Shown piece by piece: positions 10,949-29,800 of a stretch of 33,920 nucleotides of DNA. The stretch spans positions 1 through 33,920 of the forward strand of contig CAZVPQ010000001.1 in assembly GCA_964628675.1 (NCBI GenBank). Reading direction: 5' to 3'. The stretch is from an uncultured Hyphomicrobiales bacterium. GTDB taxonomy: Bacteria; Bacteroidota; Ignavibacteria; Kapaibacteriales; UBA2268. Under the pieces are notes generated by a model. It did no database searches. It was not told the DNA's origin and saw only the letters and a list, made by a program, of their open reading frames with translations. Position numbers and translations under genes: made by a program. The first letter of the stretch is position 1. Every line of letters begins with the position of its first letter.

Positions 10949-10993
10949 GATGTTATATCTAACAAATTTAAAATTAAGTTATTAAAAAATATT

Positions 10994-12145: not shown

Positions 12146-12182
12146 TCTTACTTACAATTTATAAAATAAAATATTAGAATAG

Positions 12183-15100
12183 ATGAAAAAAGAATTAGCA
12201 AATCGGTTGTCATCAATGACGCCGGAAGAAATAAGGTCTCTTCTGAAAAGAAATCCAAAAAAATCTTTGGATAAGGCAAAAGAAAAATTAAAAATGGAAA
12301 GAAATGAGAAAGAGAAATATCCACTTTCAAGCACTCAGGAAAGGACTTGGTTTTTATGTCAATTAAATTCGGGAAGCCCAATAAATAATAATGCTTTTGC
12401 CATTAAAATGAAATCAAAAACCAGAGTAAAACCGGAAATCTTTGAACAAGCTCTGAAATTACTTGCCGATAGACATGAAATTTTACGGACATCATTTCAT
12501 AGTAGGAAAGGACGACCATTTCAAAAAATTCATAAATCCGTTGATTTCAAAGTTGAATATTTAGATTTACAGCATTTATCCAAGAGAAATAGAGAGGATA
12601 AAATTATTGGGGAAGCGGTCAAAGAAGCACATAAAATATTTGATTTATCTAAATGCCCATTGCTTAATTTTAAAATATTACATATTGAAAAAAATGAATA
12701 TGTCTATTTGATAACTCCACATCATATTATTTCCGATGGCTGGTCAAATGCTATTTTTTCAAGAGAATTTATACAGATATATACATCTTTGGTAAATAAT
12801 ACATCATTAAATCTTCCTGAATTGAACTACCAATATGTTGATTATGTCAATTGGGAAAAACATTGGTTACAAAGTGATAAATATAAAGAATACTTAAACT
12901 ATTGGAAAAAACAACTTGAAAATATAGAAGTTTTAGAGTTCCCGAAAGATTTCCAAAGACCAAATATTATGTCCACTGATGGCGCGATGGAAAGCATAGT
13001 TCTTGATGATAATTTAGCAAAAGAATTAAAAGATTTTAGCCAGCAAAGAGCTGTAAATTTATTTTCTACGCTTTTATCAATATTTAATATTCTTCTCTAT
13101 AAATATACAGGGCAAAATAATATTACAATCGGTACTCCGATGGCTAATCATAATAAAAATGAATTCCAAAATGTTATGGGAATGTTTTTAAATACTTTGC
13201 CTATACCTACTGTAATCAATGAAAATAATACATTTGTGGAATATATAAATCAAACAAGTAAAATTAGTCAGGGGGCATTTATTCATCAGGAGTTACCTTT
13301 TGACAAACTTATAGAAGAATTAAAACCTCCACGTGATATGAGCAAGCACCCTTTGTTCCAAATTATGTTTGTTTTTCAGAATATTCCTTCTCTTTATAAG
13401 ACCAATGGTATTGATATGATACCATTGAAAATCGATTATCATTTATCCAAATTCGATATTGATTTATGGGTCGAAGAAGCTGACAATAAAATGATAATAT
13501 CTCTTAAATATTTTACTGATTTATTTAAAAAATCCACTATTCGAAGGTTTTTGAAGCACTATCAAATTTTAATGAATGATGCAGTTTCAAACCCAAATAA
13601 AATGATTGTTGATTTGAATTATATTCCTAATGATGAAAAAATATTTTTGTTATCAAATGCTTCAAAACAAAAATTTAAAAATAGTGATAAAACGTTTATT
13701 GATTATTTTGAAAAGCAAGCAAATTCGCATAAAGAAAATTTAGCAGTACAATATCTTGAAAAAACAGTTTCTTATCAAGAGTTGAATGCTCTTGCAAATT
13801 CATTAGCTCATTATCTCAGAAAAAAAGGTATAAAAAAGGGAGATATAGTAGGTCTTATGACAAAGCGTTCCGAAAAGTCAATTATTGCTATGATAGGAAT
13901 AATGAAATCCGGTGCCGCGTATTTGCCTATTGATTCATCTACTCCTGCCGAAAGATTAAAATATATTATTGATAATTCTAAAATTAAAACAATTCTTACA
14001 GAGAAAATATTTAGTAAGAAGTTAAGAGATTATGAAATAGAACAAGTCCTTATTGATGAAAATTGGCAAAAAATCATTAATGAAGATAAAAATAATTTGG
14101 ATATAGATATTAATCTTTCCGATTTAGCTTATATTATCTATACATCAGGAACTACCGGAATGCCAAAAGGTGTTTGTATTGAACATAGGCAATTACTTAA
14201 TTATACTTTGTCAATATGGAGCAAGATGAAACTCCCGGGTATTAACCGTTTTGCAACCGTTTCATCATTGTCGGCGGATTTGGGCAATACAATGATTTTC
14301 CCTGCTCTCTCCAATGGTGCCTCGGTTAATATCATAGATGATGATTACCTGACAAATTTAGAACTTTTTTCGTCTTATATTGCAGGAAATAAAATTGATT
14401 GTATTAAACTGACTCCTTCACATCTCAATAGTTTACTGACGAGTGAAAATAAATCTGTTTTGCCTGAGAAACTTTTAGTTTTAGGAGGGGAAACATTGTC
14501 TTGGCAATTAATTGACAGGATCAGAAAACTTAAACCCGAATTACGAATCATAAATCATTATGGTCCAACAGAAACTACAACCGGTGTTTTGACTTATGAA
14601 ATCCCATTGTCGAATTATAAGAAAAAAGAACAATTTTCAGTTCCGATTGGATTCCCACTTGATAATTCGCAAATTTATATTTTAGATAAATATTTGAAAG
14701 TGGTCCCTATCGGAGTTAAAGGCGAAATATATATTGGAGGTGAAAATCTTGCAAATGGGTATATGAATAATTCGGAGCTAACGCAAAAATATTTTATTCA
14801 AAATCCTTTTAACATAAATGAAAGATTATATAAAACGGGAGATTTTGCGAAGTACCTTGATGACAACACAATTCTTTTTCTTGGTAGGAAAGACAAACAA
14901 GTTAAAATACGTGGATATAGAGTTGAATTAGAAGGAATTGAACAAATAATTTCTAATCATCAAGATATTATGCAGGTTGTTTTATTAAAGAAAAGTAAAA
15001 CCGAACAGCTGATTGCATACATTAAGTTTAAAGAAAACACAATAATAACAGAAGAAAGTTTAAGGAATTATCTAAAACCCAAACTGCCTACATATATGAT

Positions 15101-16316
15101 TCCCGATATTTTCATTTTTGTGGACGAGATTCCGATTACGAAAAATGGGAAAATTAATTTTGATAAATTGATTGCAATTGGCGAGAGTAAATCTGTTGAC
15201 GAACCATCTTCTCAAGCTCCGAGAGATAATTTAGAGTTGGAAATAACAAACGTTTGGAAAAAAATATTAAGCATAAATAAAATTGGTATAAATGATAACT
15301 TTTTTGAAATAGGTGGTCAATCTTTGATTGCTGTTGAATTATTTTCCGAACTACATAAGAAATTTGATATTGATTTGCCACTGTCAGTTTTATTTGAAAA
15401 CGGAACTATTAAAGATTTAGCAGAAATTATCAGGTCAAAAAATAAATATAGTAATAACTCTCCATTGGTAACAATTCAAGAAGGGGATAATAAAAGTCCG
15501 ATATTTTTAGTCCACCCTGCCGGTGGAAATGTGTTAAGTTATTATGATTTTAGTCAATCAATGGGCAAATCTTATCCCGTTTACGGCTTGCAATCAACTT
15601 TGGAATTGGATTGGAATTCTCCTGATTTCTCCATTAATAAGATGGCAAGATATTATTTAGACGTGATATTATCTTCGGGATTTAAACCTCCTTTTATTTT
15701 CGGTGGCTGGTCAATGGGTGCATTAGTTGCTTATGAAATGGCAATTATATGCCAAAAAGAAAATATTTCAATGCCATTAGTTATTGTAATCGACCAAGTA
15801 GCACCTGAAAATGACAAAGTTAAAAATTATCGACAAATCAATGAATTAGATCGTCTAACAATTTTTGCAGATAAAGTAGGGCATCTAATCAAACACAAAC
15901 TTGATATAACAAGAGAGCAATTAAACAATCTTACTGCAAAGGAAACTGCGAATTTGTTTTTAAATGAATTTAAAAAACATAATCTTGTGCCAGCTGATGT
16001 GCAATTAGAAAAATTCAAAGATTTTCTTGATATTATGATAAAACATAATGAAGTAACGATGGATTACAATCCCGAAATATACAATGGCAAGGTTCTAATT
16101 ATTAAAGCAGAGCATTCATTTGAAATTGATTCTTCATTGAAAAAAGCTTCGGAATTATTTAGACCAAGAGCCAAAGATTTAGGTTGGCAAGTATATATTA
16201 AGAATAATGTAAATATCATTCTTGTACCGGGCGATCATATTTCTATGATGACAAAACCTAATATCAATATTTTAGCAGAAAAACTAAAACATTGGATTGA
16301 AGATAATAATTTATAA
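12183..16316 (+). CDS. Non-ribosomal peptide synthetase termination module: (docking)-C-A-T-TE; A-domain code resembles Asp
   Basis: C (~12315-13622): HHIISDGWS. A (~13695-15173): IIYTSGTTGMPKG, NHYGPTETT, YKTGDF, GRKDKQVKIRGYRVEL, NGKINFDKL. T (~15216-15437): FFEIGGQSL. TE (~15481-16307): FLVHPAGGN, GGWSMGA (GxSxG), VPGDHISMM. The hand-extracted specificity code is DLTKVGHTGK. Confidence 0.95.
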   Translation: MKKELANRLSSMTPEEIRSLLKRNPKKSLDKAKEKLKMERNEKEKYPLSSTQERTWFLCQLNSGSPINNNAFAIKMKSKTRVKPEIFEQALKLLADRHEILRTSFHSRKGRPFQKIHKSVDFKVEYLDLQHLSKRNREDKIIGEAVKEAHKIFDLSKCPLLNFKILHIEKNEYVYLITPHHIISDGWSNAIFSREFIQIYTSLVNNTSLNLPELNYQYVDYVNWEKHWLQSDKYKEYLNYWKKQLENIEVLEFPKDFQRPNIMSTDGAMESIVLDDNLAKELKDFSQQRAVNLFSTLLSIFNILLYKYTGQNNITIGTPMANHNKNEFQNVMGMFLNTLPIPTVINENNTFVEYINQTSKISQGAFIHQELPFDKLIEELKPPRDMSKHPLFQIMFVFQNIPSLYKTNGIDMIPLKIDYHLSKFDIDLWVEEADNKMIISLKYFTDLFKKSTIRRFLKHYQILMNDAVSNPNKMIVDLNYIPNDEKIFLLSNASKQKFKNSDKTFIDYFEKQANSHKENLAVQYLEKTVSYQELNALANSLAHYLRKKGIKKGDIVGLMTKRSEKSIIAMIGIMKSGAAYLPIDSSTPAERLKYIIDNSKIKTILTEKIFSKKLRDYEIEQVLIDENWQKIINEDKNNLDIDINLSDLAYIIYTSGTTGMPKGVCIEHRQLLNYTLSIWSKMKLPGINRFATVSSLSADLGNTMIFPALSNGASVNIIDDDYLTNLELFSSYIAGNKIDCIKLTPSHLNSLLTSENKSVLPEKLLVLGGETLSWQLIDRIRKLKPELRIINHYGPTETTTGVLTYEIPLSNYKKKEQFSVPIGFPLDNSQIYILDKYLKVVPIGVKGEIYIGGENLANGYMNNSELTQKYFIQNPFNINERLYKTGDFAKYLDDNTILFLGRKDKQVKIRGYRVELEGIEQIISNHQDIMQVVLLKKSKTEQLIAYIKFKENTIITEESLRNYLKPKLPTYMIPDIFIFVDEIPITKNGKINFDKLIAIGESKSVDEPSSQAPRDNLELEITNVWKKILSINKIGINDNFFEIGGQSLIAVELFSELHKKFDIDLPLSVLFENGTIKDLAEIIRSKNKYSNNSPLVTIQEGDNKSPIFLVHPAGGNVLSYYDFSQSMGKSYPVYGLQSTLELDWNSPDFSINKMARYYLDVILSSGFKPPFIFGGWSMGALVAYEMAIICQKENISMPLVIVIDQVAPENDKVKNYRQINELDRLTIFADKVGHLIKHKLDITREQLNNLTAKETANLFLNEFKKHNLVPADVQLEKFKDFLDIMIKHNEVTMDYNPEIYNGKVLIIKAEHSFEIDSSLKKASELFRPRAKDLGWQVYIKNNVNIILVPGDHISMMTKPNINILAEKLKHWIEDNNL

Positions 16317-16333
16317 ACAAAATTAATACTACG

Positions 16334-17383
16334 ATGGAAAAAACATCTAATAATAAAGATAAAACAAAAGAATATGCTTCGATGATTGACAATTTTATTT
16401 ATGGCAATTGGCTCACAAGTATAACTTATACCTTTGCCGAATTAGCAATCGCTGATATTTTATATAAAAATCCTTTGGATATTGATGAGATTAGCAAAAG
16501 GACTGATACAAATCCGAAATTACTTAAAAGATTTCTCAGATGTGCCGCTAATCTTGGTTTTGTCAGAACAAGCGAAAACAAATATTACATTGCACCAATG
16601 GGAGATTTGTTAAGAACTGAGCATCCTCTCAGCAGAAGGGACGCCGCAAGACTCAACGGTGCTAATTATCGCTATCAGCCTTGGGGTTATCTTGTTGACA
16701 TTCTAAGGCAAGGCAATAGTCAATCGTTCTCACCAACTTTTGAAAAAGGTAGTCTCAATTATCTATCCGATAAGCCTGAATTACTTGAAGTATTTCATAA
16801 TGCTATGACAAGAATAACCGAAGAAGAAAATTTGCCGATTGTGTCTTCTTATGATTTTTCAAAGTTTAAACATATTGTAGATATTGGTTGTGGTCTCGGT
16901 AGTTTTCTAAAAACTATTCTCAGAGAAAATGAGCATATTAAAGGCACAATGTTTGATTTGGAATCGACATTAAATATGGAAGATAATATTATTGAAGATG
17001 ATTTAAAAGATAGACTTGATAAGGTATCAGGCGATTTTTTTAATGACACTATTCCTAATGCTGATTTATATATTTTGAAAAATGTAATTCATAATTGGAA
17101 TGAAGAAAACGCTTTAAAATTATTGAAAAATATTTATACTTCTATGTCTTCAGATAAAAATAATGTTGCAGATAAACGATTGCTTATAATTGAAAATACT
17201 ATTAAAGATAATGATGATTATAATATTGCAAATTGGATGGACTTGAATTTTATGATTTTAGTTGATGGTGCCGAAAGGTCTGTTAACGACTATAAATCTT
17301 TTGTTCAGGAAGCCGGTTTTAAAATATCAAATGTTATTCCTACTCCAACAGGGAGAGATATTATTGAATTAACAATAGCATAA
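16334..17383 (+). CDS. SAM-dependent O-methyltransferase (COMT-like / Methyltransf_2 family)
   Basis: An N-terminal dimerisation-like region is followed by the SAM motif VDIGCGLGSF, then DLYILKNVIHNWNEENALKLLKN (catalytic His context) and a C-terminus typical of small-molecule O-MTs. It lies 17 nt downstream of the NRPS stop. Confidence 0.85.
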   Translation: MEKTSNNKDKTKEYASMIDNFIYGNWLTSITYTFAELAIADILYKNPLDIDEISKRTDTNPKLLKRFLRCAANLGFVRTSENKYYIAPMGDLLRTEHPLSRRDAARLNGANYRYQPWGYLVDILRQGNSQSFSPTFEKGSLNYLSDKPELLEVFHNAMTRITEEENLPIVSSYDFSKFKHIVDIGCGLGSFLKTILRENEHIKGTMFDLESTLNMEDNIIEDDLKDRLDKVSGDFFNDTIPNADLYILKNVIHNWNEENALKLLKNIYTSMSSDKNNVADKRLLIIENTIKDNDDYNIANWMDLNFMILVDGAERSVNDYKSFVQEAGFKISNVIPTPTGRDIIELTIA

Positions 17384-17390
17384 AATTTTT

Positions 17391-18122
17391 ATGAAAAATA
17401 TTCTTGAATATTCGACAATTTTGGAAATGGAACTTGATGGAGAAAGTATTAAGTCGGGATTGCACATCGTTTTCGAAAACAATTTTTACAAGAAAATAAA
17501 TCCGAATGAATATCTTCATAAAGATGAATTAATTGAATTTGATAAAATTTCGAGTGATATTGTAAAGCATAATTTTTGTGCCGGTCGATACTCCGCAAAG
17601 AAATCAATTAGTTTGATTACTGGCGAGCAAGATTTAAAAGAGATGATTATTGAGCATGGAGTTTTCGGTTTTCCTATTGTCAAAAACTCAGAGAATTTAC
17701 AAGTTTCGATAGCTCATACCGATAGTTCTGCAGTAGCGATTTGTTTTAACGAAAAATCCCCGATGGGCATAGATATAGAAATTATAAAAGAAAAACAAAT
17801 TGATGTTATTGAAACACAGCTGACTCAATATGAGAAAGAATTAAGTAAGGATTTGGATATAAGCACAAATATTTTCTTCCATCAATTATGGACAAGCAAA
17901 GAAGCACTTGGCAAGGCAATAAAAACCGGTTTTACAATTCCAATGCTATTGTTTGAGGTTAATTCTATTGAAGACAATAAACAATTTATGCTTTTATTCT
18001 TCAAACATTTTGAACAATTTAAAGCGGTTTCTCTAAAGATTAATGAGAACTATATATTATCTATTGTGCTTCCGAAAAGTATTGATATTAATAATTTATT
18101 TTCCATAAATCAAAATTATTAA
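17391..18122 (+). CDS. 4'-phosphopantetheinyl transferase (Sfp type)
   Basis: Motifs: MGIDIEIIKE (G-x-D-x-E) and WTSKEALGKA ((W/F)xxKE(A/S)xxK). The 243-aa size fits Sfp-type PPTases. It is the last gene of the plus-strand operon. Confidence 0.8.
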   Translation: MKNILEYSTILEMELDGESIKSGLHIVFENNFYKKINPNEYLHKDELIEFDKISSDIVKHNFCAGRYSAKKSISLITGEQDLKEMIIEHGVFGFPIVKNSENLQVSIAHTDSSAVAICFNEKSPMGIDIEIIKEKQIDVIETQLTQYEKELSKDLDISTNIFFHQLWTSKEALGKAIKTGFTIPMLLFEVNSIEDNKQFMLLFFKHFEQFKAVSLKINENYILSIVLPKSIDINNLFSINQNY

Positions 18123-19581
18123 TACCGTCGGGTTCACTTGGTAATTGCCCGATTTGATATTTCAAATTAACCAAATCAATAGCAATCTGAACTTTTAAAT
18201 TTTCATAAGTAATGTTTGCTTTTATATAATCTTGATGAGAATTTGTTACGTCAATTTGAGTAGCCAGGCCCATTTTAAATTTCTCATATTCGTTATAATA
18301 AACTTGTTCGTATAATTTCACATTTTCTTTTTGGTTATTATACATTCCCAATGCATCATTAATACCACTAATGATATTTTTAACATTATTTTTTACATCG
18401 AATGCGAATTTATTTAAACTAATATTTTGTGATTCCAACTCTGATTTCTTTGAAATATATATACCCTCATAAACTGCTTTTTGAAAAGGTAGCATATATG
18501 ACAAAGACAAAGTAAAACTGGAACCCGGAAAATGTCCGTCAATTGCACTCAATAATTTATTCCAATCCTCATTTTGTTTTAAACCGTAATAATTATATTG
18601 CAAATTCAGATTTATATCTTCTTTGAGGTCATTTGATGCGCCCTTTACTTCCAATCCAGTAGCTGAAACGTTCATTGCAAGACTTTGATAATCTTTTCTG
18701 TTTTTAATAAGAGAATCAATATTTGTATTTATAAATTGAAAATAATTTGTAAAATTCAATTTATCAAAGTCGGGATATTTATCTAAAAATGTAGGAATTG
18801 TCTTATTGTCAGTATGTCTTACGATACCTAAAATTTGATTTAAATTATACAATGAATTATGCAAAGATTTCTCGGCATTGGTCATTTCAATTTTGATACT
18901 GTTGTAATAGGCGTTGGTTCTAAGCATTTGAGATTTCGGGAGCTGGTCTTTATCCACTAAAGTTGCTATATCGTGTTTGTATTTCTCGACATATTCAGAT
19001 ATTTTTTTATAGAAATTATAAACATTAGTGTTACTGTAGGCAACAAGATAAGATTCGGAAATAAATTTAATCAATTGGCTAATTCTATAAGCGTAATCTT
19101 TCTTTTCGGCATTGTATTGAAGTTCAGATGCTTTTAAATTTGCATTATTTGCATTGTTTTCACCGAGACCTTTGAAAAGCGGCAAATCAAGCCCCAGCCA
19201 AACACCTTCCGAATTATTGATTGATTGAGGATTAATAACATTTGTCCTTGATAAGTTCAAACCTGAATTAAGCGATAAACCGTAATTAGTGGGCAGAACA
19301 AATTCAGTGTTGAAATCAAACATATCTTTGTAGGAAACAGTCGGGTCGTTGCCTGTATTTGTATTGAGACTATAATGAAAAAACGGGTCGAATCTCCCCT
19401 TGTTCCTCAAGACTTTACCTTTACTATTTTCGATTGCCGTTTTTTGTAATTTAATATCAAAATTATTACTTATACCCTCTTTAATTAAATTTTTTAAAGA
19501 AAGTTGCATTGTTGTATTTTCTTGTGCAACAAAATTAAAGCCGAGAAGCAAAATAAAATAAATTATATATCTTTTTTTCAT
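18088..19581 (-). CDS. TolC-like outer-membrane efflux protein
   Basis: N-terminal signal peptide (MKKRYIIYFILLLGFNFVAQ). The 497-aa length and the two-repeat helical/beta composition are typical of outer-membrane factor proteins. It is the last gene of the HlyD-ABC-ABC-OMP operon. Family assignment rests on context plus composition rather than sharp motifs. Confidence 0.7.
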   Translation of the reverse strand: MKKRYIIYFILLLGFNFVAQENTTMQLSLKNLIKEGISNNFDIKLQKTAIENSKGKVLRNKGRFDPFFHYSLNTNTGNDPTVSYKDMFDFNTEFVLPTNYGLSLNSGLNLSRTNVINPQSINNSEGVWLGLDLPLFKGLGENNANNANLKASELQYNAEKKDYAYRISQLIKFISESYLVAYSNTNVYNFYKKISEYVEKYKHDIATLVDKDQLPKSQMLRTNAYYNSIKIEMTNAEKSLHNSLYNLNQILGIVRHTDNKTIPTFLDKYPDFDKLNFTNYFQFINTNIDSLIKNRKDYQSLAMNVSATGLEVKGASNDLKEDINLNLQYNYYGLKQNEDWNKLLSAIDGHFPGSSFTLSLSYMLPFQKAVYEGIYISKKSELESQNISLNKFAFDVKNNVKNIISGINDALGMYNNQKENVKLYEQVYYNEYEKFKMGLATQIDVTNSHQDYIKANITYENLKVQIAIDLVNLKYQIGQLPSEPDGINNFDLWKINY

Positions 19582-19629
19582 ATTTTATTGAATCGTATCA
19601 TTAAACAATCAAAAATTAATAGTAAAAAA

Positions 19630-22527
19630 CTATGCTAACTGACGTTTAGCTAAATTCTCGAAAAATCCTTTTTGTACCATAAGTTCTTCATAGTTACCTT
19701 GCTCAACTACTTTCCCATTGTCCATAACGAAAATAATATCTGCATCTTTAATCGTACTTAATCTATGGGCAATAACTATTCTTGTAGCATTTAATTTATT
19801 AACGTAATCACTAACAATTTTTTGGGTTTCGTTATCCAAAGCCGATGTGGCTTCATCAAAAATGAATATTTTCGGATTTCTCACCAATGCACGGGCAATA
19901 ATTATTCTCTGTTGTTGACCGCCGGATAGTGTGCCACCACCTGCGGGGAGTATAGTTTGCATTTTCTGAGGAAGATTTTCAATATCTTTATCACAACCGG
20001 CCATTTTTGCCGCTCTCCAAGCATCCTCTTCTGTCAATGTAGAATTACCGATAATATTAAATAAAATCGAACCTTGCATTATTTTACTATTCTGCAAAAC
20101 CACGCCTAATTGTTCTCTTAAATCTCTAATATTAATATCAGAAATTTCTTTGCCGTCAAAGAAAATTGAACCTGAAGCGTATTTTTCAAACCCGAGTAAT
20201 ATACGCATCAATGTTGATTTTCCTGAGCCCGAACTACCGACAAGAGCAACAAATTGCCCGGCTTTCATTTTTAAGCTAACATCTTTCAATATTAAATCCT
20301 GATTATCCTCATATTTAAAATTAATATGCGATACTTCGATATTACCGTTCAAATCTCCCGGATCTTGTTTGTCGTCAGCTTCCATCGCGGCAGTTAATAT
20401 CGGTCTAATCAAATCAAACGTCGGTTTAATTGTAATAAATGGTACTGTCGCCATAGCCATCTGCAATAATGCACCTTGAAAACTACCAAACGCAGTATTA
20501 AAAGCCAAGAAATCACCCATTGAAATTAGCGAATGAGTAAATAAAGAATGAACTTTGATGAATATAACCATAGAGCCAAACACAGGAAATATTGATGTGA
20601 AAACCGCCGCCCAGACTAATAATTTTCTTTTTGCTACATAATTTTCTTTTTGCTTGGCAAATTTCTTAGTCCATAATGCAAAAACACTATCCTTGCTGTC
20701 CGTAATTCTAATCTTATTTATACCACTTAAAATTTGCAGAAGAAAACCCGATATAATGGCTTCCATTCTTTTAATTTGAACTATATATTTATATGCAAAG
20801 AAACTAATTGTTATCGTAAATGCAACAATAATTAATCCCAAGAACAAAGCAAAAATTGCTAATTCCCAACTATAATAAAATAGTAAAGCAAAATAGAAAA
20901 CCGAAAAAATTGCCGAGACCAAAGAATGAATAACTACATTTGAAATTGATTCTTTTATTTGCTCAATGCCCATACTTCTTTCAGCCAAATCACCCGGATT
21001 ATACTTTCTGAAAAAGTTCACTTCGAGAGATAAAATTCTGTCCCAAATAGCAGATTGCAATTTATAACTTGCCGTGCCTTGCGCCCTGAGTATAGCAATT
21101 GATTTGGCAAAATTAAGTATAGCCATTACGATAGCTACCGAAACAAGTAGTATTGCTATTTGCAATAGTTCAGGTGTACTCCCTGACGGAATAACATTAT
21201 TAAAGATATAACCGACAGAAATAGGCAATAGCAATGCTAACAATGCCGCCGCAATTCCAATTATGAAAAATGCTATTATGTCTTTATAAGTAAACTTCAA
21301 TGCAAATTTCATCATATCTTTGCCTGTGATTTTCTTCTTAGGCAAAGGCGTATAGAAGCTATAAGCATAAGGCAGCAGCTTTGTTGCTATATCTTCGTTT
21401 ACAATAGTTTTTGTATGATTTTGAATATCAATTAAATAATAAGATGAATTATTTTTCGGTATCAAAGCCACAGGAGTTTTATCTTCTTTCCAAAAACCGA
21501 GCAAAGCACCGTGAAAACTATTTTGCCAATTAAAATCAAGGTTTACTTTTCGACTTCTAATATTAGAAGTTTTTAAAATCATCTGGAACTGAGTTAATTT
21601 CGAGTTCTTTTTTGGTTTAGGTTTTTTAAATTCAATTTTTTCATATTCCCCGACGATAGAGCAAGCTTTGAATAATAAATCCAAAGAATTATCAATATGA
21701 TCTACGAATAGTTTTTGCTCAGTACTTTTTTCACCGGGAATAATTTCTTTTAAGTTATAAATAGCATTTGCTTTGGTTTTTTCCTTATATTTCGCCGCCA
21801 CATTAATCTGATTTAAAGAGTCTTGCAAATATTCCGTATGTAATGAATTGAGGATTTTATCAATTTCTTTGTTGAAATAAAATAAGTAGTCTGTAAAACT
21901 ATCTTTCTGGATAATTTCTTCAGTCGAAAATTGATTAATCTCGGCAGTTTCATAAAATTGATACCAAAAGTTTTTTGCACTTGGCAAATAAGTTTTTTTG
22001 TCTGATTTTATTTCATATTTATCAAACAATTTAATTGAAGTATCCGGTAGGTCAAACCATATAATTTCATCGAAATTAGGCGGACAAAAAACCGAACCTT
22101 TTTTAACTGTAATATTTTTTTGAGTATCACTAAAAGTAAAGAGCGAGGGCATACCGTATTTATTTATACGATTTGCCATTTTATCAATCCAACTATTGAT
22201 AAGTCCGCTAAACTCATCAATATTCTTTTTCGATATTTCATTAATTGAGATCTTGTCTAATTCAACAACTTCGGTTTCGGAACTAGTATTGATAACAATA
22301 TCATAATTTTCTTGCATCGGGGAAGAAGGTATTAGAAAAGGTGCTTCAATACGTGCAATAAAATTTCGTTTGCCATAGTCACCATCTTTTTTTTCTATAT
22401 AAAATATATCACTTTGACCTTCTGCTAAATAATAAAATACTTCTTCTTTGTTCTGCAGAGAAAACAGAGTGTTGCTTTTTAATTTATTATCAGCATTTGC
22501 AATATTTAATAATATTTCTTTTTCCAC
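19630..22527 (-). CDS. ABC transporter permease/ATPase with a ~400-aa N-terminal extension (NHLP/NHLM bacteriocin-export ABC2-like subunit)
   Basis: NBD: GSSGSGKST (Walker A), LSGGQQQRIIIARAL (signature), IFIFDEATSALD (Walker B), IAHRLST. Six-helix TMD from ~aa 408. N-terminal extension: beta-barrel-like segment (aa ~25-70), then a degenerate C39-like segment (LDFNWQNSFHGALLGFWKEDKTPVALIP...YAYSFYTPLP) as in this exporter family. GTG start at 22527, 1 nt after the upstream stop. Confidence 0.85.
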   Translation of the reverse strand: MEKEILLNIANADNKLKSNTLFSLQNKEEVFYYLAEGQSDIFYIEKKDGDYGKRNFIARIEAPFLIPSSPMQENYDIVINTSSETEVVELDKISINEISKKNIDEFSGLINSWIDKMANRINKYGMPSLFTFSDTQKNITVKKGSVFCPPNFDEIIWFDLPDTSIKLFDKYEIKSDKKTYLPSAKNFWYQFYETAEINQFSTEEIIQKDSFTDYLFYFNKEIDKILNSLHTEYLQDSLNQINVAAKYKEKTKANAIYNLKEIIPGEKSTEQKLFVDHIDNSLDLLFKACSIVGEYEKIEFKKPKPKKNSKLTQFQMILKTSNIRSRKVNLDFNWQNSFHGALLGFWKEDKTPVALIPKNNSSYYLIDIQNHTKTIVNEDIATKLLPYAYSFYTPLPKKKITGKDMMKFALKFTYKDIIAFFIIGIAAALLALLLPISVGYIFNNVIPSGSTPELLQIAILLVSVAIVMAILNFAKSIAILRAQGTASYKLQSAIWDRILSLEVNFFRKYNPGDLAERSMGIEQIKESISNVVIHSLVSAIFSVFYFALLFYYSWELAIFALFLGLIIVAFTITISFFAYKYIVQIKRMEAIISGFLLQILSGINKIRITDSKDSVFALWTKKFAKQKENYVAKRKLLVWAAVFTSIFPVFGSMVIFIKVHSLFTHSLISMGDFLAFNTAFGSFQGALLQMAMATVPFITIKPTFDLIRPILTAAMEADDKQDPGDLNGNIEVSHINFKYEDNQDLILKDVSLKMKAGQFVALVGSSGSGKSTLMRILLGFEKYASGSIFFDGKEISDINIRDLREQLGVVLQNSKIMQGSILFNIIGNSTLTEEDAWRAAKMAGCDKDIENLPQKMQTILPAGGGTLSGGQQQRIIIARALVRNPKIFIFDEATSALDNETQKIVSDYVNKLNATRIVIAHRLSTIKDADIIFVMDNGKVVEQGNYEELMVQKGFFENLAKRQLA

Positions 22528-22528
22528 T

Positions 22529-24712
22529 TTAACTAAGTTTTATAAGTTTATAATAATAACCTTCTTTGTCTTGAATCATCTCATCGTGAGTACCTCTTTG
22601 AACTACCTTGCCTCTGTCCATAACAATAATCTCATCACAATCCCTAATAGTACTCAATCTATGAGCTATAATAAGAGTAGTACAACCTCTTTTTCTTATA
22701 TTGCTATCAATGATTTGCTCCGTGTTGGGGTCTAATGCACTTGTAGCTTCGTCTAAAACAAGTAAAGTTGGATTTTTTGCCAAAGCTCTTGCTATCTCAA
22801 TTCTTTGTTTTTGACCACCGCTAAAATTAGCACCGCCCGGTGCAACCATACTATCATAAGCATTAGGTCTCACCGAAATAATATCGTGAATAGCGGCATC
22901 TTTGCTTGCTTCAATTATATCAGATTTTTTGACATTCTTATTCCACATCGTGATATTGTCATTAACAGTACCCATAAAAAGGAAAATATCTTGATCGACC
23001 ATAGCCATAGAATTGCTTAATACTTCCAATTGATATTCTTTTAATTCCTTGCCGTCAATAATAATTTTCCCGTCCCAAGGTTTATACAATCCCATAGCAA
23101 TTTTTGCTATTGTTGATTTACCGGAGCCTGAACCGCCAATCAAAGCAACTCTTTTACCGGGTTTAATATCTAAAGAAAAATCTGAAATTAAAGGTTCGGC
23201 AAAACTATCATATCCGAAGGTAATATTTTTTAGTTCCAAATGTCCCGTAAGTTTTGCTTCTTCCAATAGAAATTCTTTTTTTCCAATTCTTTCTTCATTA
23301 ATAAAAACCGGGTCCAGCGGATTGCTCATAGCGTCGTCAATAGTTCGTACATAGCTAATCGCTTCTTCGATTTTGCCACCCATTCCGACAAGTTCTTTAA
23401 TAGGTGCCGAGAAATTTGACATTAAACTTTGAAATGCTATTAGCAAGCCGATAGTAATTTCGCCGTGAATTATCAATAAAGCACCGAATGAAATAATAAT
23501 GATATTATTTAAATTTGTAAGAAAATCAGGCAAAGCATCTAGAAATCTATCTGTGAATCCCAATTCTTGGTCTTTGTTTACCATTTCGGCTTGATATCCT
23601 GACCACAAAGCAAAAAAATCATTTTCACTTCCTGTGGATTTAATTGTCTCTATCATCTCCAGACCGATACCACCCGTACTGAATGTTTTACCTCTATTCT
23701 GAAATTGTTTTTGATTTAATGTTATCTTTTTTGTAGAAATAATTTTCAATGTAATTAAATTTATTAAAGCGAACGAAACCCCGATGATAGTTAGAATTAC
23801 ATTGTAGTAAAACATTATTACAGCGAAAAATATTATTGAAAGTAAATTCAAAGTGTTCTTCGCTAAATCTTCAGAGAGTACTTGAGCCAAGGTATCATTG
23901 AGCTGTACTCTTTTAATAATCTCACCTGAATGTCTTTCTTGGAAAAAACTAAGTGGGAGTTTGAAAACATGCATAAAAAATTTAGCTGATTGGCTTAAAG
24001 CCATTTTTATTTCTAATTTCAATAATACTTGTTGCTGTAACCAAGTTACTAAAGCATTAAATACAAGGACAATGCCCATCGCCAGCATCAATGGTTTATA
24101 CCAATCGACTTGCCTAAATACCAAAACATCATCAATAAATACTTTGTAGAATCCGGGGATAAGAATACCCGGTATTATCAATAATAAACCGCATAACAGA
24201 ATAAAAATTAAATCTTTTTTACTACCTGATAATCTTTCGGCAAGAGAAGCAATAACAGATTTCTTCTTGCCACCTGCCACAAAATCATCATTAGTTTGGA
24301 ATTCCATAACCAAGCCGTTAAAAGAAGATTGAAACTCCTGTTTTGTAATTTTTTTTCTTCCGGAATCGGGATTATTGATTATATATTTATCATTTTTTAT
24401 TTCCGTTAAAACGGCAAAATCATTCTGCCCCCAACCGATAATCATTGGGAAATTTTTGTCTTTGATTGATAATAAATCACAAGTGGAAACTTGAGAATCA
24501 AAACCGTATTTTTTTGAAGCAATGATTAAACGTTCTTTGTTTGTTCCATTAGTTGTAACCCCACATTCGGAACGCATTTTCTCAGGTGGTATAAAAAGCC
24601 CATGATAAGCAAATATCATAGACAATGAAACAGCCCCTGATTCAGCGTTTTGAGTCTGTAATATTACCGGAACTTGTTTGCTTTTGTAACTTGTTTTATT
24701 CTTGTTTGCCAT
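22529..24712 (-). CDS. ABC transporter with an N-terminal C39-peptidase-like domain (NHLP/NHLM bacteriocin-export ABC1-like subunit); the peptidase catalytic residues appear substituted
   Basis: N-terminus: VPVILQTQNAESGAVSLSMIFAYHG...ECGVTTNGT...FPMIIGWGQNDFAVL...IINNPDSG, which is a C39 fold pattern. TMD follows. NBD: GGSGSGKST, FSGGQKQRIEIARAL, LLVLDEATSALD, IAHRLST. ATG at 24712. Confidence 0.9.
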   Translation of the reverse strand: MANKNKTSYKSKQVPVILQTQNAESGAVSLSMIFAYHGLFIPPEKMRSECGVTTNGTNKERLIIASKKYGFDSQVSTCDLLSIKDKNFPMIIGWGQNDFAVLTEIKNDKYIINNPDSGRKKITKQEFQSSFNGLVMEFQTNDDFVAGGKKKSVIASLAERLSGSKKDLIFILLCGLLLIIPGILIPGFYKVFIDDVLVFRQVDWYKPLMLAMGIVLVFNALVTWLQQQVLLKLEIKMALSQSAKFFMHVFKLPLSFFQERHSGEIIKRVQLNDTLAQVLSEDLAKNTLNLLSIIFFAVIMFYYNVILTIIGVSFALINLITLKIISTKKITLNQKQFQNRGKTFSTGGIGLEMIETIKSTGSENDFFALWSGYQAEMVNKDQELGFTDRFLDALPDFLTNLNNIIIISFGALLIIHGEITIGLLIAFQSLMSNFSAPIKELVGMGGKIEEAISYVRTIDDAMSNPLDPVFINEERIGKKEFLLEEAKLTGHLELKNITFGYDSFAEPLISDFSLDIKPGKRVALIGGSGSGKSTIAKIAMGLYKPWDGKIIIDGKELKEYQLEVLSNSMAMVDQDIFLFMGTVNDNITMWNKNVKKSDIIEASKDAAIHDIISVRPNAYDSMVAPGGANFSGGQKQRIEIARALAKNPTLLVLDEATSALDPNTEQIIDSNIRKRGCTTLIIAHRLSTIRDCDEIIVMDRGKVVQRGTHDEMIQDKEGYYYKLIKLS
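24293..24673 (-). other. C39-like domain with Ser at the catalytic Cys position and Asp at the catalytic His position
   Basis: Family consensus ...LQMEAxECGAA... reads LQTQNAESGAV here (Ser25, codon TCA at 24638-24640). Consensus ...NHFxVL... reads QNDFAVL here (Asp98, codon GAT at 24419-24421). The oxyanion Gln (LQTQ) and the downstream Asp (NNPDSG) are retained. The alignment was done by eye against remembered ComA/LagD/NHLP-exporter consensus. Confidence 0.7.
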
Positions 24713-24730
24713 AATTTTATGTATTTATTC

Positions 24731-25987
24731 TTATTCCCAATACTTTTTAAAGATTGGCACAATGAAATCAATAGGAGCTTTTTCTTTAACTGAAACCGAG
24801 CCTAAACATAATGTACCGCTAACAACAGTATAGGAAGGACCTTTTTTGCTTGTCCATTTAAATTTACTAACAGTCGTAGAATCTTTTTTCAACTGTATAG
24901 TTATTCTGTACTTTGGACCTTGGCTGTTTAACAAATTCACAAGCTCATCGTTTTCCAGACTTTCCATAATGCTCGCTGTCGGAGATGAAAAATGATTAAC
25001 TCTAATAACTTTTCCGATTATCTGACCGAATTTTTCTTTATCAACAGTAAACGGATTTATTTGAGCGTCCTGCCCTACTTTAACATCGGCATTGGAATTA
25101 AAAGGAATGTAAAGGTCAACTATATAATTTTTGTTTTTTCTATTTTCTAATTTTTCAATAATAAAAAGTGTCATAGAAGCACCAACAATATCGCCATAAG
25201 AAACCATTTGGGATACTATTATGCCGTCAGTTGGGGCTTTTATCATAGTTTGTCGGTTATATTCTTTATTTAAATCCGCAATTTTTTTCTTTAATACTTT
25301 TATCTGAGAAGCTAAATTATCCTTGTCCATTGATTTTGACAGTTGCCATTCTTCCATAGAAATAGCCAATTGCTTTTGCTGAGCATTAGTATTATTCAAT
25401 AATATTTTTAGGTCTTCAATTGCTTCTTTAGTTAACTCATATTCTATTTTAGTAACAAGTCCTTGTTTAAGAAGTTCTGTCTTTTTTTCTAAATTACTTT
25501 TTTTAAATGAAATTTTTTGTTTTATACTTTTTAATTGCTTTTCGATTTTCTCAGATTCGGTTTTATAAAAGTTAGCTTTTGAAACTCGCTCTTGAGAATC
25601 AGAATTCAGGAGAACGGAATCTTGGAGTTCCAAACCTTTTAATTGCAAATTTACTTCATTTATGGAAGATAAAAGTTCAGGTTGTGTCAATTGTAATAAT
25701 ACTGTCCCTTCTTTTACTGTATCTCCAAGTTCGTGGTATAAATCTACAACTGAACCTGAATACTTCGTATTTACTTTAAAAATACCTGATTTTAGTTTAA
25801 TCAAACCAATTCCATTTACTTTTTGTGGAATTGTTCCCCATAGTCCCCATATCACAGTTAGAAGAGTAAAGGCACTCAGTCCTATAAGCAATATCCAAAA
25901 ACCGGGTTTTGTAATTTTGATTAATCTGTCAAGTCCTTCCGGAGATTGCGTTTCTCTCTGATTCTCTTGGCTATTGTTGTTTTTCAT
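24731..25987 (-). CDS. HlyD-family membrane fusion / secretion protein
   Basis: N-terminal cytoplasmic tail plus a single TM helix (FWILLIGLSAFTLLTVIWGLWG). This is followed by a lipoyl-like segment, a long coiled-coil (aa ~100-240) and a beta-barrel C-terminus. It is the first gene of the exporter operon, 18 nt upstream of the C39-ABC gene. Confidence 0.85.
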   Translation of the reverse strand: MKNNNSQENQRETQSPEGLDRLIKITKPGFWILLIGLSAFTLLTVIWGLWGTIPQKVNGIGLIKLKSGIFKVNTKYSGSVVDLYHELGDTVKEGTVLLQLTQPELLSSINEVNLQLKGLELQDSVLLNSDSQERVSKANFYKTESEKIEKQLKSIKQKISFKKSNLEKKTELLKQGLVTKIEYELTKEAIEDLKILLNNTNAQQKQLAISMEEWQLSKSMDKDNLASQIKVLKKKIADLNKEYNRQTMIKAPTDGIIVSQMVSYGDIVGASMTLFIIEKLENRKNKNYIVDLYIPFNSNADVKVGQDAQINPFTVDKEKFGQIIGKVIRVNHFSSPTASIMESLENDELVNLLNSQGPKYRITIQLKKDSTTVSKFKWTSKKGPSYTVVSGTLCLGSVSVKEKAPIDFIVPIFKKYWE

Positions 25988-26098
25988 TTTTATTTCTTAA
26001 AAAAGTCCGATAAAATTTTTAAAACTACTCAGTATAAAAATAACATTGATTTGAATAAAAAAATATTAGCTACTAAATCTTTCTGAATATTGTATATA

Positions 26099-26303
26099 CC
26101 TAATTAATATCAAATTTGCCATCTTTTACCTTTTGAATCATTGCTCTAATTTTTACATTAAATTCTTCATCTTTTGAATATTTCCTTATGGCTTCGTCAA
26201 ATGATTTATCATTTTGAACTTCATTGTATAGTATTAATAATTTTGTTTTTCAACTCAGCATTTTGTGTGATTCCATTAAGGATAGCATCAATATTACTGC
26301 TCA
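26099..26303 (-). pseudogene. Small ORF paralogous to 1-186, interrupted by a 1-nt frameshift; it sits in the precursor-peptide position upstream of HlyD
   Basis: The minus-strand ATG at 26303 has GAAGGA (26313-26318) 9 nt upstream. It opens MSSNIDAILNGITQNAELKNKIINTIQ* (stop 26220-26222). A +1 shift at about 26225 continues as NEVQNDKSFDEAIRKYSKDEEFNVKIRAMIQKVKDGKFDIN* (stop 26099-26101). The joined product aligns with the 1-186 product across the junction (KSKIIKTINEVQN vs KNKIINTI-NEVQN). Relative to copy 1-186, this copy carries one extra base. Confidence 0.65.
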
Positions 26304-26882
26304 TTGCTATTAATCCTTCTGATTATATAACTAAATTAATACTTACTTAATAGGTTCTAAAAATGCAATTATTTAATAAATAAATGAAAAAGATATCAAG
26401 AACCCAGTAAATATCTATTAAGTATAAAACGTTTAAAATAACTAAATATTATTCGTATATATAAATAATTGATTTTTTTATTTGTTTAGATAATATTACC
26501 AAATATTTTAACATATTTTGCTACAAAATCAATCATTATTATTTTTTTATATTGAAATTTGCTTATTATCGGCTATGATATAATTGTTAATGAATTTACT
26601 TTCTTAATTGCTATTCAAATTCTTTCACCATTTGATTTTTATCTTTGTGATCCATTTGTTTGTTACTTTGTTTTTTGTTCTTTGGCATCTTCAAAAAACG
26701 GATATTCTATTACATTACATTAAGTTGTTTTTTAGAACGTCCAATAAATAATTATATGTTTTTTTGAAGTAAATTATTATATTTAAAATTGTGCAAGAAA
26801 CAGATTTGAAATATTAACTTATTTATTGATAGTAAGTTCTTAATTGTTATAATTAAATAATATAGATTTTTCTTTTCAAAAG

Positions 26883-29800
26883 GTGAAAGAAATGGGAACT
26901 CCAATATATAAATTAGGTATAGATGTAGGTTCTACGACGGCAAAGGCGGCATTAATAAACTCAGATTTATCAGTAGCTTTCTCGGATTATCAAAGACATC
27001 ACGGCTCAATAATAGATACTGTAATCAATATCATTAAAAAAGTACAAAGCCAATTTGGGAATATAGAGTTAAGTGTTGCAATAACCGGTTCGGCTGGTAT
27101 GGGCATCTCGGAAAAAACGAAAATACCATTCCTGCAAGAATTAATTGCTTCTTCTGAATTTGTTGATAAATTTCATCCTGAAATCAAAACTTTGATTGAT
27201 ATTGGCGGTGAAGATTCTAAAATTATTTTCTTTGATGATAAATCAGGGCACGATTTACGAATGAACGGTAGTTGTGCAGGTGGCACAGGCTCTTTTATCG
27301 ACCAAATGGCGAGTTTGCTTGATGTTACTTTGCCGGAGTTGGACGAGTTGGCTTCTCAATACAAAGAAATTCATTCAATAGCATCAAGGTGCGGCGTTTT
27401 TGCCAAAACCGACGTACAGAATTTGTTGAGTCGTGAAATACCAAGACCCGATATATGTGCTTCAATCTTTGACGCAGTTGCTTTACAAATAAAAAATTCT
27501 CTACTACGTGGTAAAGAAATAATTCCAAAAGTTGTTTTCGCAGGCGGTCCTTTAAAATTCCTATCTAATTTAAGAGAATCAATGAAAAGAATTTTTGAAA
27601 TTGACGAAGAAGATATTTTACATTTGGAACATCCCGAATTATTGCCTGCTATTGGCTCTGCTGTGGCTGATAATATTGACAGACCTATATGGGAAATCAA
27701 CACATTAATTGAGAATTTGATAAAATCAAAGAAGGTTTCTATTGTTTCCGATAGCAATATCAAACCCTTGTTTGAAGACAACATTGAATACTTGGAATGG
27801 AAAGAATTCAAATCCAATATCAAAGCTCCGAGAATTGATATTAGTGAACTGAATAATAAGGAATGTTTTTTGGGTATTGACTCCGGTTCAACAACAACTA
27901 AAATTGTGCTAATTGACCAAGACAATAAAATAGCTTTTGATTTTTATCAAAATAATAATGGTAAACCAATCGAAAGTGTAAAAAAAGGCTTGTTGGAATT
28001 AAAAAAACAATGTAATGAAAATAATATTAACCCTATCATAAAAACATCGACGGTAACAGGCTATGGTGAAGATTTAATCAAATCCGCTTTTAATATTAAT
28101 TATGGTATTGTTGAAACTATTGCGCATTATAAAGCCGCAAAAGTATTTGATGACAAGGTTAGCTTTATTCTTGATATTGGTGGTCAAGATATGAAAGCGA
28201 TTTTTGTTAAAGACGGTATAATTCAAAATATAGAAATCAATGAGGCTTGTTCTTCGGGTTGCGGTTCATTTATCGAAACATTTGCAAATTCTTTGGATTA
28301 TACTGTTGAAAAATTTTCAGAGATAGCTGTATCGGCTTACAATCCTTGTGATTTGGGAACTAGATGCACCGTATTTATGAACTCTAAAGTCAAGCAATCT
28401 TTTAGAGAGGGCGCCCCTGTATCGGATATATCAGCTGGTTTGGCATATTCAGTTGTTCAAAATTGTTTGCATAAAGTTCTTAAAATCTATGATAATTCGG
28501 TTTTGGGTAACAATATTGTTGTGCAGGGCGGAACTTTCAAAAATGCCGCTGTTCATCGTGCTTTCGAGAAAATATCAGGTAAAAAAGTAATATCACCCGA
28601 TATATCGGAATTGATGGGAGCTTATGGTTCGGCTATCATTGCAAAAAATTTGTATTATCAAGATAAAGCTATTATAAAAGAAGACTTTAATTTAGATAAT
28701 ATTGAAAATATTGGCAAGTACGATGTTAAATTTACTGTATGCAGAGGTTGCGAAAATCATTGCAAAGTCAGTCGCTTGAAGTTTGAGAATGGAAATATAT
28801 TTTTCACGGGGAATAGATGCGAAAGAGTATTTTCCAATAAAGGCACTAAAACGGAAAGAGGGCAAAATCTTGTTCAATATAAATATGATTTGTTATTTGA
28901 TAGAGAATTGAAACCCAATGGAGAAATAAAACAGAAAATAGGAATTCCAAGAGCTTTGAATATGTTCGAGAATTTCCCGTTTTGGACTACTTTGTTCACG
29001 GAAACAGGTTTTGAAGTTGTTTTGTCGGATAAGACAAGCGAAACAACAGCTCACATAGCTTCCGGTACATTGATGTCTGATAACATATGTTTCCCGGCAA
29101 AGATTACTAACGGGCATATCTTAAATTTGATTAATCAAGATGTCGATAGGATATTTTATCCTATTATAAATTTTGAAAAGAAAGAATTTAATGAAATGTC
29201 TAATAGCTTCAATTGTCCGGTCGTAACCGGTTATCCTACTGTTATAAAAAGTGCTATTAATCCCTCGGAGAAATACGGTATTCCTTATGATACACCGAAT
29301 ATAAATTTCAAAACCGAAAAATTATTAAAACAAGCCTGCTATAATTATTTTTCGACTCTCGGCGTTAGTAAAAAATCTTTCAATAAAGCTTTTAAGAAGG
29401 CATTAGCAGAGTTTAAAAAATTCAAACAATTGATTAGAACAAAAGCATCGGAGATTTTAATTCAATCTACTATTGATAATAGAAAAGTCATTGTATTGGC
29501 TCAAAGACCTTACCAAATTGACCCGATTGTTAATCACGGCATTCCCGAGATGATAGCCGATTTCGGCTACGATGTTATCACAGAAGATTCCTTGCCTTAT
29601 ACAGATGAAGATACTGTTGATAATTTGGTTGTGCTATCTCAATGGGGTTATCCAAACAGATTATACAGAGCGGCAAAATGGGCATTACGTTTTGATAATG
29701 TAGAATTCATACAGCTTAATAGTTTCGGTTGCGGTCCCGATACATTGGTGATAGACGAAATTGCTGATTTGATGGAGCTTTCGGGCAAGCCCCACTCCGT

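Follow-up and report, generated by a model that had tools for sequence, protein, structure and literature searches.

Genes of the exporter cassette and their families

The window studied here is the entire contig CAZVPQ010000001.1 (GenBank assembly GCA_964628675.1), 33,920 bp in length and with a guanine plus cytosine (GC) content of about 30%. Its minus strand carries, from position 25987 to 18088, a four-gene exporter cassette that abuts a thiotemplate cluster with genes for non-ribosomal peptide synthetases (NRPS) and a polyketide synthase (PKS) (Table 1). We report that this cassette descends from the exporters of nitrile-hydratase-leader (NHLP) and Nif11-leader peptides, a group of peptides made by ribosomes and modified post-translationally (RiPPs), that it has lost catalytic residues of its C39 peptidase domain, and that its present cargo is probably the product of the neighbouring cluster.

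The original prediction, made from the sequence alone, had described a HlyD-type adaptor, a 727-aa ATP-binding cassette (ABC) protein with a C39 domain (ABC1) and a 965-aa ABC protein (ABC2), in that order and with gaps of 1–18 nt. This layout was reproduced by open reading frame (ORF) calling, with 18 nt between HlyD and ABC1 and 1 nt between ABC1 and ABC2, which begins with a GTG start codon; the gene for a TolC-like outer-membrane protein (OMP) follows after 48 nt. Pfam identified Peptidase_C39, ABC_membrane and ABC_tran in ABC1, and ABC_membrane and ABC_tran in ABC2, and the Walker A and B, signature, D-loop and H-loop motifs are intact in the ATPase domains of both proteins. The OMP has an N-terminal signal peptide and matched TIGR01844 only weakly (26.5 bits). 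Orthologs of HlyD (26–52% identity) were found in every related cassette, as were those of the OMP (27–42% identity), always after ABC2. An outer-membrane factor had been seen as completing the cassette and is indeed present, but it is nothing special, since a canonical, LanM-linked cassette of Spirosoma also has a TolC gene. An exact match to ABC1 was found in one 14.5-kb metagenome scaffold alone, which added no further context.

Table 1. Features of the window. aa, amino acids; C39-like, related to the C39 peptidase fold; CNB, cyclic nucleotide-binding; AF2, AlphaFold2; PPTase, phosphopantetheinyl transferase; ADH, alcohol dehydrogenase.
Feature	Position	Strand	Size or residues	Basis and details
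HlyD-type membrane-fusion adaptor	24731-25987	-	418 aa	TIGR03794 263.8 bits; Pfam HlyD_D23 + HlyD_3
ABC1: C39-like + type IV exporter membrane domain + ATPase	22529-24712	-	727 aa	TIGR03796 906.1 bits
C39-like domain of ABC1	24278-24676	-	residues 13-145	Aligned to LahT Gln21/Cys27/His101/Asp117: Gln19 kept; Cys to Ser25, His to Asp98, Asp to Asn114
ABC2: tandem CNB-fold + C39-like + membrane domain + ATPase	19630-22527	-	965 aa	TIGR03797 816.7 bits
N-terminal extension of ABC2, two CNB-fold domains in tandem	21733-22527	-	~residues 1-265	AF2 + Foldseek
C39-like domain of ABC2	21274-21681	-	residues 283-418	Fold comparison only
TolC-like outer-membrane factor (OMP)	18088-19581	-	497 aa	Pfam OEP 83.4 bits, two repeats
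NRPS1	286-5394	+	1702 aa	Pfam; A-T-C-A-T
PKS	5363-10948	+	1861 aa	Pfam; KS-AT-KR + DH-like region + ACP
Zn-ADH-type reductase	10994-12145	+		Pfam
NRPS	12183-16316	+	1377 aa	Pfam; C-A-T-TE
O-methyltransferase	16334-17383	+		Pfam
PPTase	17391-18122	+		Pfam
Intergenic region, AT-rich, divergent, upstream of exporter operon	25988-26882	.	895 bp	GC ~22%
BcrAD_BadFG ATPase + DUF2229 protein	26883-31211	divergent from exporter	1442 aa	Pfam; two stretches of each domain

The assignment to the NHLP/Nif11 exporter families, made in the original prediction, was confirmed with the NCBIfam profiles. HlyD, ABC1 and ABC2 had TIGR03794, TIGR03796 and TIGR03797 as their respective best matches, all above the curated cut-offs (156.2, 853.3 and 709.4 bits, respectively), with a margin of 53 bits in the case of ABC1. 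These families are named 'Trans-Fuse', 'Trans-Cleave' and 'Trans', respectively (Haft, Basu & Mitchell 2010, PMC2887384). A comparison with generic toxin, MacB and multidrug models had been set beforehand as a possible refutation, and the NHLP-exporter models scored better than all of them. The HlyB model TIGR01846 gave 407.8 and 321 bits for the ABC proteins, far under its cut-off of 725.55, and the adaptor remained under the cut-offs of the type I HlyD model TIGR01843 (59.4 versus 208.65 bits) and of the DevB-family adaptor model TIGR02971 (31.3 versus 129 bits). EmrA, DevB, MsbA and other generic models scored lower still, all far under their own cut-offs.

Loss of the C39 active site and the modules of ABC2

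The closest PDB sequence to the N-terminal domain of ABC1 is the protease domain of LahT (6MPZ, E=1.4e-23), in which Cys27, His101 and Asp117 form the catalytic triad and Gln21 lies close by (PMC6363468). Only the glutamine is kept at the aligned positions of the window protein (Table 1). Cys and His are both gone as well in the other ABC1s of the clade that were scored (26/26, loci that include identical or near-identical copies), and therefore the loss characterises the clade and did not arise from a sequencing error. In the clade the Cys has given way to Ser, or else to Ala (L002) or Thr (L023), and the His to Tyr, Asn, Gly, Asp or Lys; the position of the triad Asp is variable, with many members retaining this residue. 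Given the loss of Cys, His and Asp, the C39 domain of the window ABC1 is predicted to be catalytically dead and would not cleave a leader. Leader cleavage is the defining activity of TIGR03796 (Haft 2010, PMC2887384), and the label 'RiPP-type' given to the exporter in the original prediction is functionally misleading for a domain without these three residues. PCAT-type N-terminal domains lacking the catalytic Cys are known as non-proteolytic C39-like domains (CLDs) (PMC6363468, PMC8277102).

This domain is not decaying. Its sequence has diverged faster than the remainder of ABC1 (44–47% versus 72–74% identity to the nearest relatives), but it is full length and 21 of its 133 positions are conserved at 80% or more, including Gln...Glu-Ser-Gly at the former active site. 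Approximately 90% of the 150 closest family representatives in a library of 1.84 billion proteins have the triad, and in a neighbour-joining tree, calculated without support values, the thiotemplate-linked ABC1s formed one clade apart from the bulk with intact triads. With respect to TIGR03796, canonical ABC1s reached 1039–1191 bits and five relatives of the clade 737–848 bits, below the cut-off of 853, with the window ABC1 at 906. Elsewhere in the TIGR03796 family, a few representatives (P0169, P0191 and P0261) have independently replaced the Cys by Ser and have kept His and Asp ('QSHD'); rather than dead domains, these may be C39 proteases that use a serine as nucleophile.

The long N-terminal extension of the 965-aa ABC protein, pointed out in the original prediction, is present, and alignments and predicted folds resolved it as an ancestral tandem CNB-fold module followed by a C39-like domain. 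Pfam gave nothing at E≤1 in the N-terminal 400 residues of ABC2. In the AF2 model of residues 1–285 (pLDDT 82.9, pTM 0.78) there are two beta-barrel-plus-helix modules, and the top Foldseek matches were regulatory subunits of PKA with tandem CNB domains (6rsx, E=6.5e-8) and the sensor domains of CRP, CprK and CooA; no canonical phosphate-binding cassette was seen by eye in the CNB-fold module. A phmmer search of residues 270–420 against the PDB gave no match. The AF2 model of residues 283–418 (pLDDT 88.1) has a C39-like fold, the closest folds being the HlyB CLD, 7sgr_A (E=2.8e-4, TMq 0.58), and 3zua ('A C39-like domain'). Both kinds of module align with those of the Nif11-linked outgroup locus L029 and are therefore ancestral to the family; another outgroup, L031, also has a CNB-fold extension. 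Two clades have lost the CNB-fold module, and their ABC2 is about 750 aa in length.

Linkage to thiotemplate genes and screens for precursors

The genome collection was scanned with an ABC2 query without its ATPase domain, and 16 loci were obtained from metagenome-assembled genomes of Bacteroidota/Bacteroidales, with pairwise identities of 72–99% and forming 13 clusters at 90% identity. In all of them (16/16), HlyD, ABC1, ABC2 and the OMP are followed, in the same direction, by an ortholog of the NRPS1 of the window (36–42% identity), and a PKS ortholog (about 60% identity) follows NRPS1 wherever the locus reaches that far. The linkage to NRPS/PKS genes is thus conserved in these loci and also in four further clades. 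A lack of such linkage among orthologous loci had been named beforehand as another possible refutation, and these results speak against it. In one of them, an NRPS (C-A-T-TE), a PPTase, a 102-aa ORF and another NRPS precede the cassette; in a second, a 79-aa ORF and the cassette are followed by an NRPS and a PKS; and in a third, a 2304-aa PKS, PhyH, MBL and two glycosyltransferase genes, followed by oppositely oriented PPTase and methyltransferase genes, come before the cassette. The fourth (L042) presents an ortholog of the O-methyltransferase, HlyD, a B12/radical-SAM enzyme, a 96-aa ORF, ABC1, ABC2, the OMP and then an NRPS. With the convergent layout of the window there are at least five arrangements of the cassette and thiotemplate genes, and adjacency is kept in five clades at 41–51% ABC1 identity. 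Metagenome contigs found with the reductase of the window as query were too short to reach the exporter.

Two of these loci deserve separate mention. In L042 (positions 3302-12740; GCA_030641485.1, DAOWHJ010000169.1), whose cassette is peptidase-dead, the insert between HlyD and ABC1 consists of a 543-aa B12-binding/radical SAM protein and the 96-aa ORF; the upstream O-methyltransferase is 69% identical to that of the window and the NRPS lies downstream. The insert may represent a tailoring enzyme, or else a RiPP-like module, within the exporter operon. In the 27.6-kb contig L026, a Rep_1 (PF01446) gene (198-1301) lies about 0.4 kb upstream of the 79-aa ORF and HlyD of a cassette with NRPS/PKS genes, and a plasmid may carry this cluster copy.

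In the window itself, the cassette on the minus strand and the thiotemplate cluster (286-18122) on the plus strand are convergent. The Pfam domains bore out the statement that the exporter abuts such a cluster and that RiPP maturases are absent from the window, as no match to cyclodehydratase, LanM or radical SAM was found among the window proteins. The PPTase and OMP genes share 35 nt at their 3′ ends (18088-18122), with no terminator-like hairpin between them, and the ORFs of NRPS1 and the PKS overlap by 32 nt, with TTG starts predicted for both. The order of Pfam domains in the PKS is unusual, with PS-DH (1547-1668) located after KR (1158-1354) and 'Beta-ketacyl_N' between AT and KR. The stand-alone Zn-ADH gene apparently provides the enoyl reduction in trans. 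The A-domain signatures, derived against a GrsA-PheA fragment and indicative only, were of a starter without Asp235, a Gly-like and an Asp-like type. They roughly suggest a non-amino-acid starter, a Gly-like and an Asp-like unit linked via one reduced ketide; the product might be a small acidic acyl-peptide, a prediction of low confidence.

Leader-peptide precursors were also sought. Neither the 33.9-kb contig nor any of 18 related loci yielded one of the NHLP (TIGR03793) or N11P (TIGR03798) type with a Gly-Gly leader, and no Nif11-like match better than E=1 was found in the window. The screen for Gly-Gly-leader ORFs within ±10 kb gave 0 in the window and in the 18 other clade loci (thiotemplate genes are visible in 16 of them); as a positive control, L029 gave four hits. 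The four outgroups with an ABC1 retaining Cys, His and Asp (4/4) were L029, L031, the Spirosoma oryzicola plasmid (L043) and Nostoc punctiforme pNPUN02 (L044), and the search of plasmids yielded canonical cassettes only (≤34% identity), which were used as outgroups. Gly-Gly-leader precursors are located nearby in L029, L043 and L044. The cassette of L029 has no OMP, and after it come a sigma factor and three precursors with Nif11 domains and ...TGG| cleavage sites; L043 has LanM, the TolC gene, the cassette and a Gly-Gly-leader ORF; and L044 has two lanthipeptide precursors, a radical SAM gene and the cassette. In L031 the cassette is accompanied by a 2-oxoglutarate-dependent oxygenase, a P450 and an 87-aa ORF, and no Gly-Gly-leader ORF was found there with the same screen.

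Concerning the other side of the cassette, the intergenic region of 25988-26882 contains short low-complexity ORFs only, and Rfam gave nothing there or anywhere else in the window. It is presumably regulatory and is unusually long for such a compact contig. The scan for promoters and terminators yielded counts equal to those of shuffled controls, with models that do not cover Bacteroidota promoters. Beyond this region and divergent from the exporter there are genes for a BcrAD/DUF2229 activase-like protein, an S41 peptidase and a DUF3108 protein. The domain pattern of the first (1442 aa) is typical of 2-hydroxyacyl-CoA-dehydratase activase-like proteins. Its gene is probably unrelated to the cluster, since elsewhere it adjoins the exporter only in an identical metagenome scaffold (L001).

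Cargo of the exporter and comparison with known systems

Taking these results together, we consider it probable that a peptidase-dead offshoot of the NHLP/Nif11 exporter has been recruited in Bacteroidota as an envelope-spanning exporter of the adjacent thiotemplate product, and recruitment for this purpose is the best supported among the alternatives initially proposed. ABC1 and ABC2 would form a heterodimer in the inner membrane, and the HlyD-type adaptor and the TolC-type outer-membrane channel would complete a tripartite, envelope-spanning ABC efflux machine. The idea of a heterodimer is supported by apparent ABC1-ABC2 fusions, as many family representatives (P0121, P0123-P0125, P0127, P0128 and others) are single polypeptides of 1300–1790 aa with two matched stretches. 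This machine, derived from the cleave-and-export cassette for NHLP/Nif11 RiPPs by loss of the peptidase activity, would now be dedicated to the neighbouring NRPS/PKS product, probably an acylated peptide-polyketide of small size. Both of the retained C39-like domains, together with the tandem CNB-fold module, may act as non-catalytic modules for cargo recognition, docking or regulation. More tentatively, and with somewhat less than even confidence, we propose that an entire lineage of PCAT/NHLP-type pumps switched its cargo from Gly-Gly-leader ribosomal peptides to thiotemplate products, with the dead C39 and CNB modules recognising the cargo or docking onto the assembly line; this would be the first exporter of the PCAT lineage dedicated to NRPS/PKS metabolites.

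Several points weigh against recruitment for the thiotemplate product and must be considered. This cargo is assigned from gene linkage. The 16 linked loci belong to one clade with conserved synteny and do not represent independent events, and the tree that separates the thiotemplate-linked ABC1s carries no support values. Linkage may not be universal, as the nearest relatives L002, L003 and L041 (60–64% identity, with a dead-peptidase cassette) show no NRPS/PKS genes in the 0.6–4 kb of flank offered by their short contigs (11–12.5 kb). In several clades small unannotated ORFs adjoin the cassette. Moreover, the CLDs of HlyB-type type I secretion systems (T1SS) bind unfolded protein cargo (PMC6363468, PMC8277102), and, by analogy, a peptide or protein as substrate would fit the retained C39-like domains no less naturally than a small molecule would. 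Finally, since the window is the whole contig, precursors may be encoded elsewhere in the genome.

The alternative that survives best, although we regard it as rather unlikely, is that the cassette is a CLD-type T1SS exporting a peptide or small protein without cleaving it. The gene of this cargo would lie near the cassette in relatives or in another part of this genome, and the cargo would act with the NRPS/PKS product or be modified by it. The retention of C39-like domains in both ABC subunits, considered with the cargo binding of HlyB-type CLDs, is in favour of this explanation, as are the small ORFs. In the clade with a 975-aa ABC2 (L004, 5947-6462; L010–L014 and L017–L022), a small gene coding for 68–170 aa is always found directly upstream of HlyD, after a conserved multi-pass membrane protein of 216–223 aa. 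The encoded protein has a variable, Pro/Thr/Gly-rich N-terminus and a conserved C-terminus (...HHKKFHLDxNGxxKPxLKEKGxKxMKKF) and could be a partner of the pump or its cargo in that clade. In addition, the ORFs of 79, 96 and 102 aa adjoin the cassette in other clades. However, no relatedness between the small ORFs of different clades was detectable, Pfam gave nothing for any of them at E≤1, and none has a counterpart in the window, including all frames of the 25988-26882 region. Neither an RTX-like protein nor any other candidate cargo was found in the window, and, wherever enough flank is available, the one partner that all clades share is a thiotemplate gene set.

An ordinary NHLP/Nif11 RiPP exporter, with precursors and maturases elsewhere in the genome and with another protease cutting the leader, is very improbable. 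The profile scores exceed the curated equivalog cut-offs, an S41 peptidase gene is located 5 kb off and the N11P precursors of some organisms lie dispersed at a great distance from the transporter (Haft 2010, PMC2887384); against this, Cys and His are lost throughout the clade while every outgroup with nearby Gly-Gly-leader precursors keeps both, the screen for such ORFs was negative around the window and the other clade loci, and the conserved thiotemplate linkage would be left unexplained. Similarly improbable is that the exporter has no functional connection with the NRPS/PKS cluster beside it and the pump serves general efflux or detoxification: this simple juxtaposition, allowed for by the original prediction and compatible with the opposite strands in the window and with the three short relatives without adjacent NRPS/PKS genes, is effectively excluded by an adjacency that persists across clades and gene orders, in most clades with the exporter and NRPS genes co-directional and separated by short gaps, consistent with one operon.

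If export of the thiotemplate product is correct, the machine changed its class of cargo and retained its architecture, and its state could be read from the presence or absence of Cys and His in the C39 domain together with a TIGR03796 score above approximately 1000 or below approximately 900 bits. In the literature we did not find NHLP-type or C39-dead pumps described in thiotemplate clusters, which is not proof of their absence. In practice, an automated annotation as 'NHLP bacteriocin export' would wrongly imply a RiPP system inside an NRPS/PKS cluster. The cassette is also a marker of hybrid NRPS-PKS clusters that form a widespread, uncharacterised family among uncultured Bacteroidota, and it raises the question of the role of non-catalytic C39-like domains where there is no peptide leader.

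With respect to known systems, the window cassette shares with the NHLP/Nif11 cassettes its three proteins in identical order, the best profile matches, the N-terminal modules of ABC2 as found in L029 and, as in Spirosoma, an associated TolC gene. It differs from them in the ABC1 triad, whose loss predicts that the protein is not proteolytically competent, in the TIGR03796 scores of its clade (737–906 versus 1039–1191 bits) and in having thiotemplate genes as neighbours, with neither an NHLP, N11P or other Gly-Gly-leader precursor nor a RiPP maturase found nearby. The CLDs known so far are those of RTX-type T1SS. The resemblance to the HlyB/HlyD/TolC system lies in the tripartite composition (ABC protein, membrane-fusion protein and outer-membrane factor), in an N-terminal C39-derived domain without the catalytic Cys and in the HlyB CLD being the best structural match of the ABC2 module. 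Unlike that system, the window has two different ABC half-transporters and not a homodimer, its CLD comes from the PCAT/NHLP lineage with Ser and not Tyr in place of Cys, its proteins fall outside TIGR01846 and TIGR01843, and no cargo ORF with RTX repeats or a C-terminal signal was found in the window. Transporters of the PCAT1/LahT/ComA type are mostly homodimers without an outer-membrane factor. ABC1 has their architecture (C39, membrane domain and ATPase), with LahT150 as the closest solved peptidase domain; theirs are active Cys proteases that cut Gly-Gly leaders, whereas the active site of the window protein is, as judged from its residues, abolished.

As regards the proposed role, the parallel is with the PvdRT-OpmQ/MacAB-TolC type, in which the biosynthetic genes are accompanied by those for a tripartite ABC pump that carries a non-ribosomal product such as pyoverdine through the Gram-negative envelope; the known tripartite ABC pumps for NRPS products, PvdRT-OpmQ among them, are of MacB type (PMC8277102). 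Nevertheless, both ABC proteins of the window combine ABC_membrane (PF00664) with a C-terminal ATPase and not MacB/FtsX with an N-terminal ATPase, and their type IV exporter fold with C39-derived domains, versus the type VII fold of MacB, makes the two pumps evolutionarily unrelated. The window adaptor is also distinct from that of the DevBCA-HgdD glycolipid exporter, as it does not belong to the DevB family. What we read as new relative to these systems is an NHLP-derived, C39-dead variant of the pump located in thiotemplate clusters.

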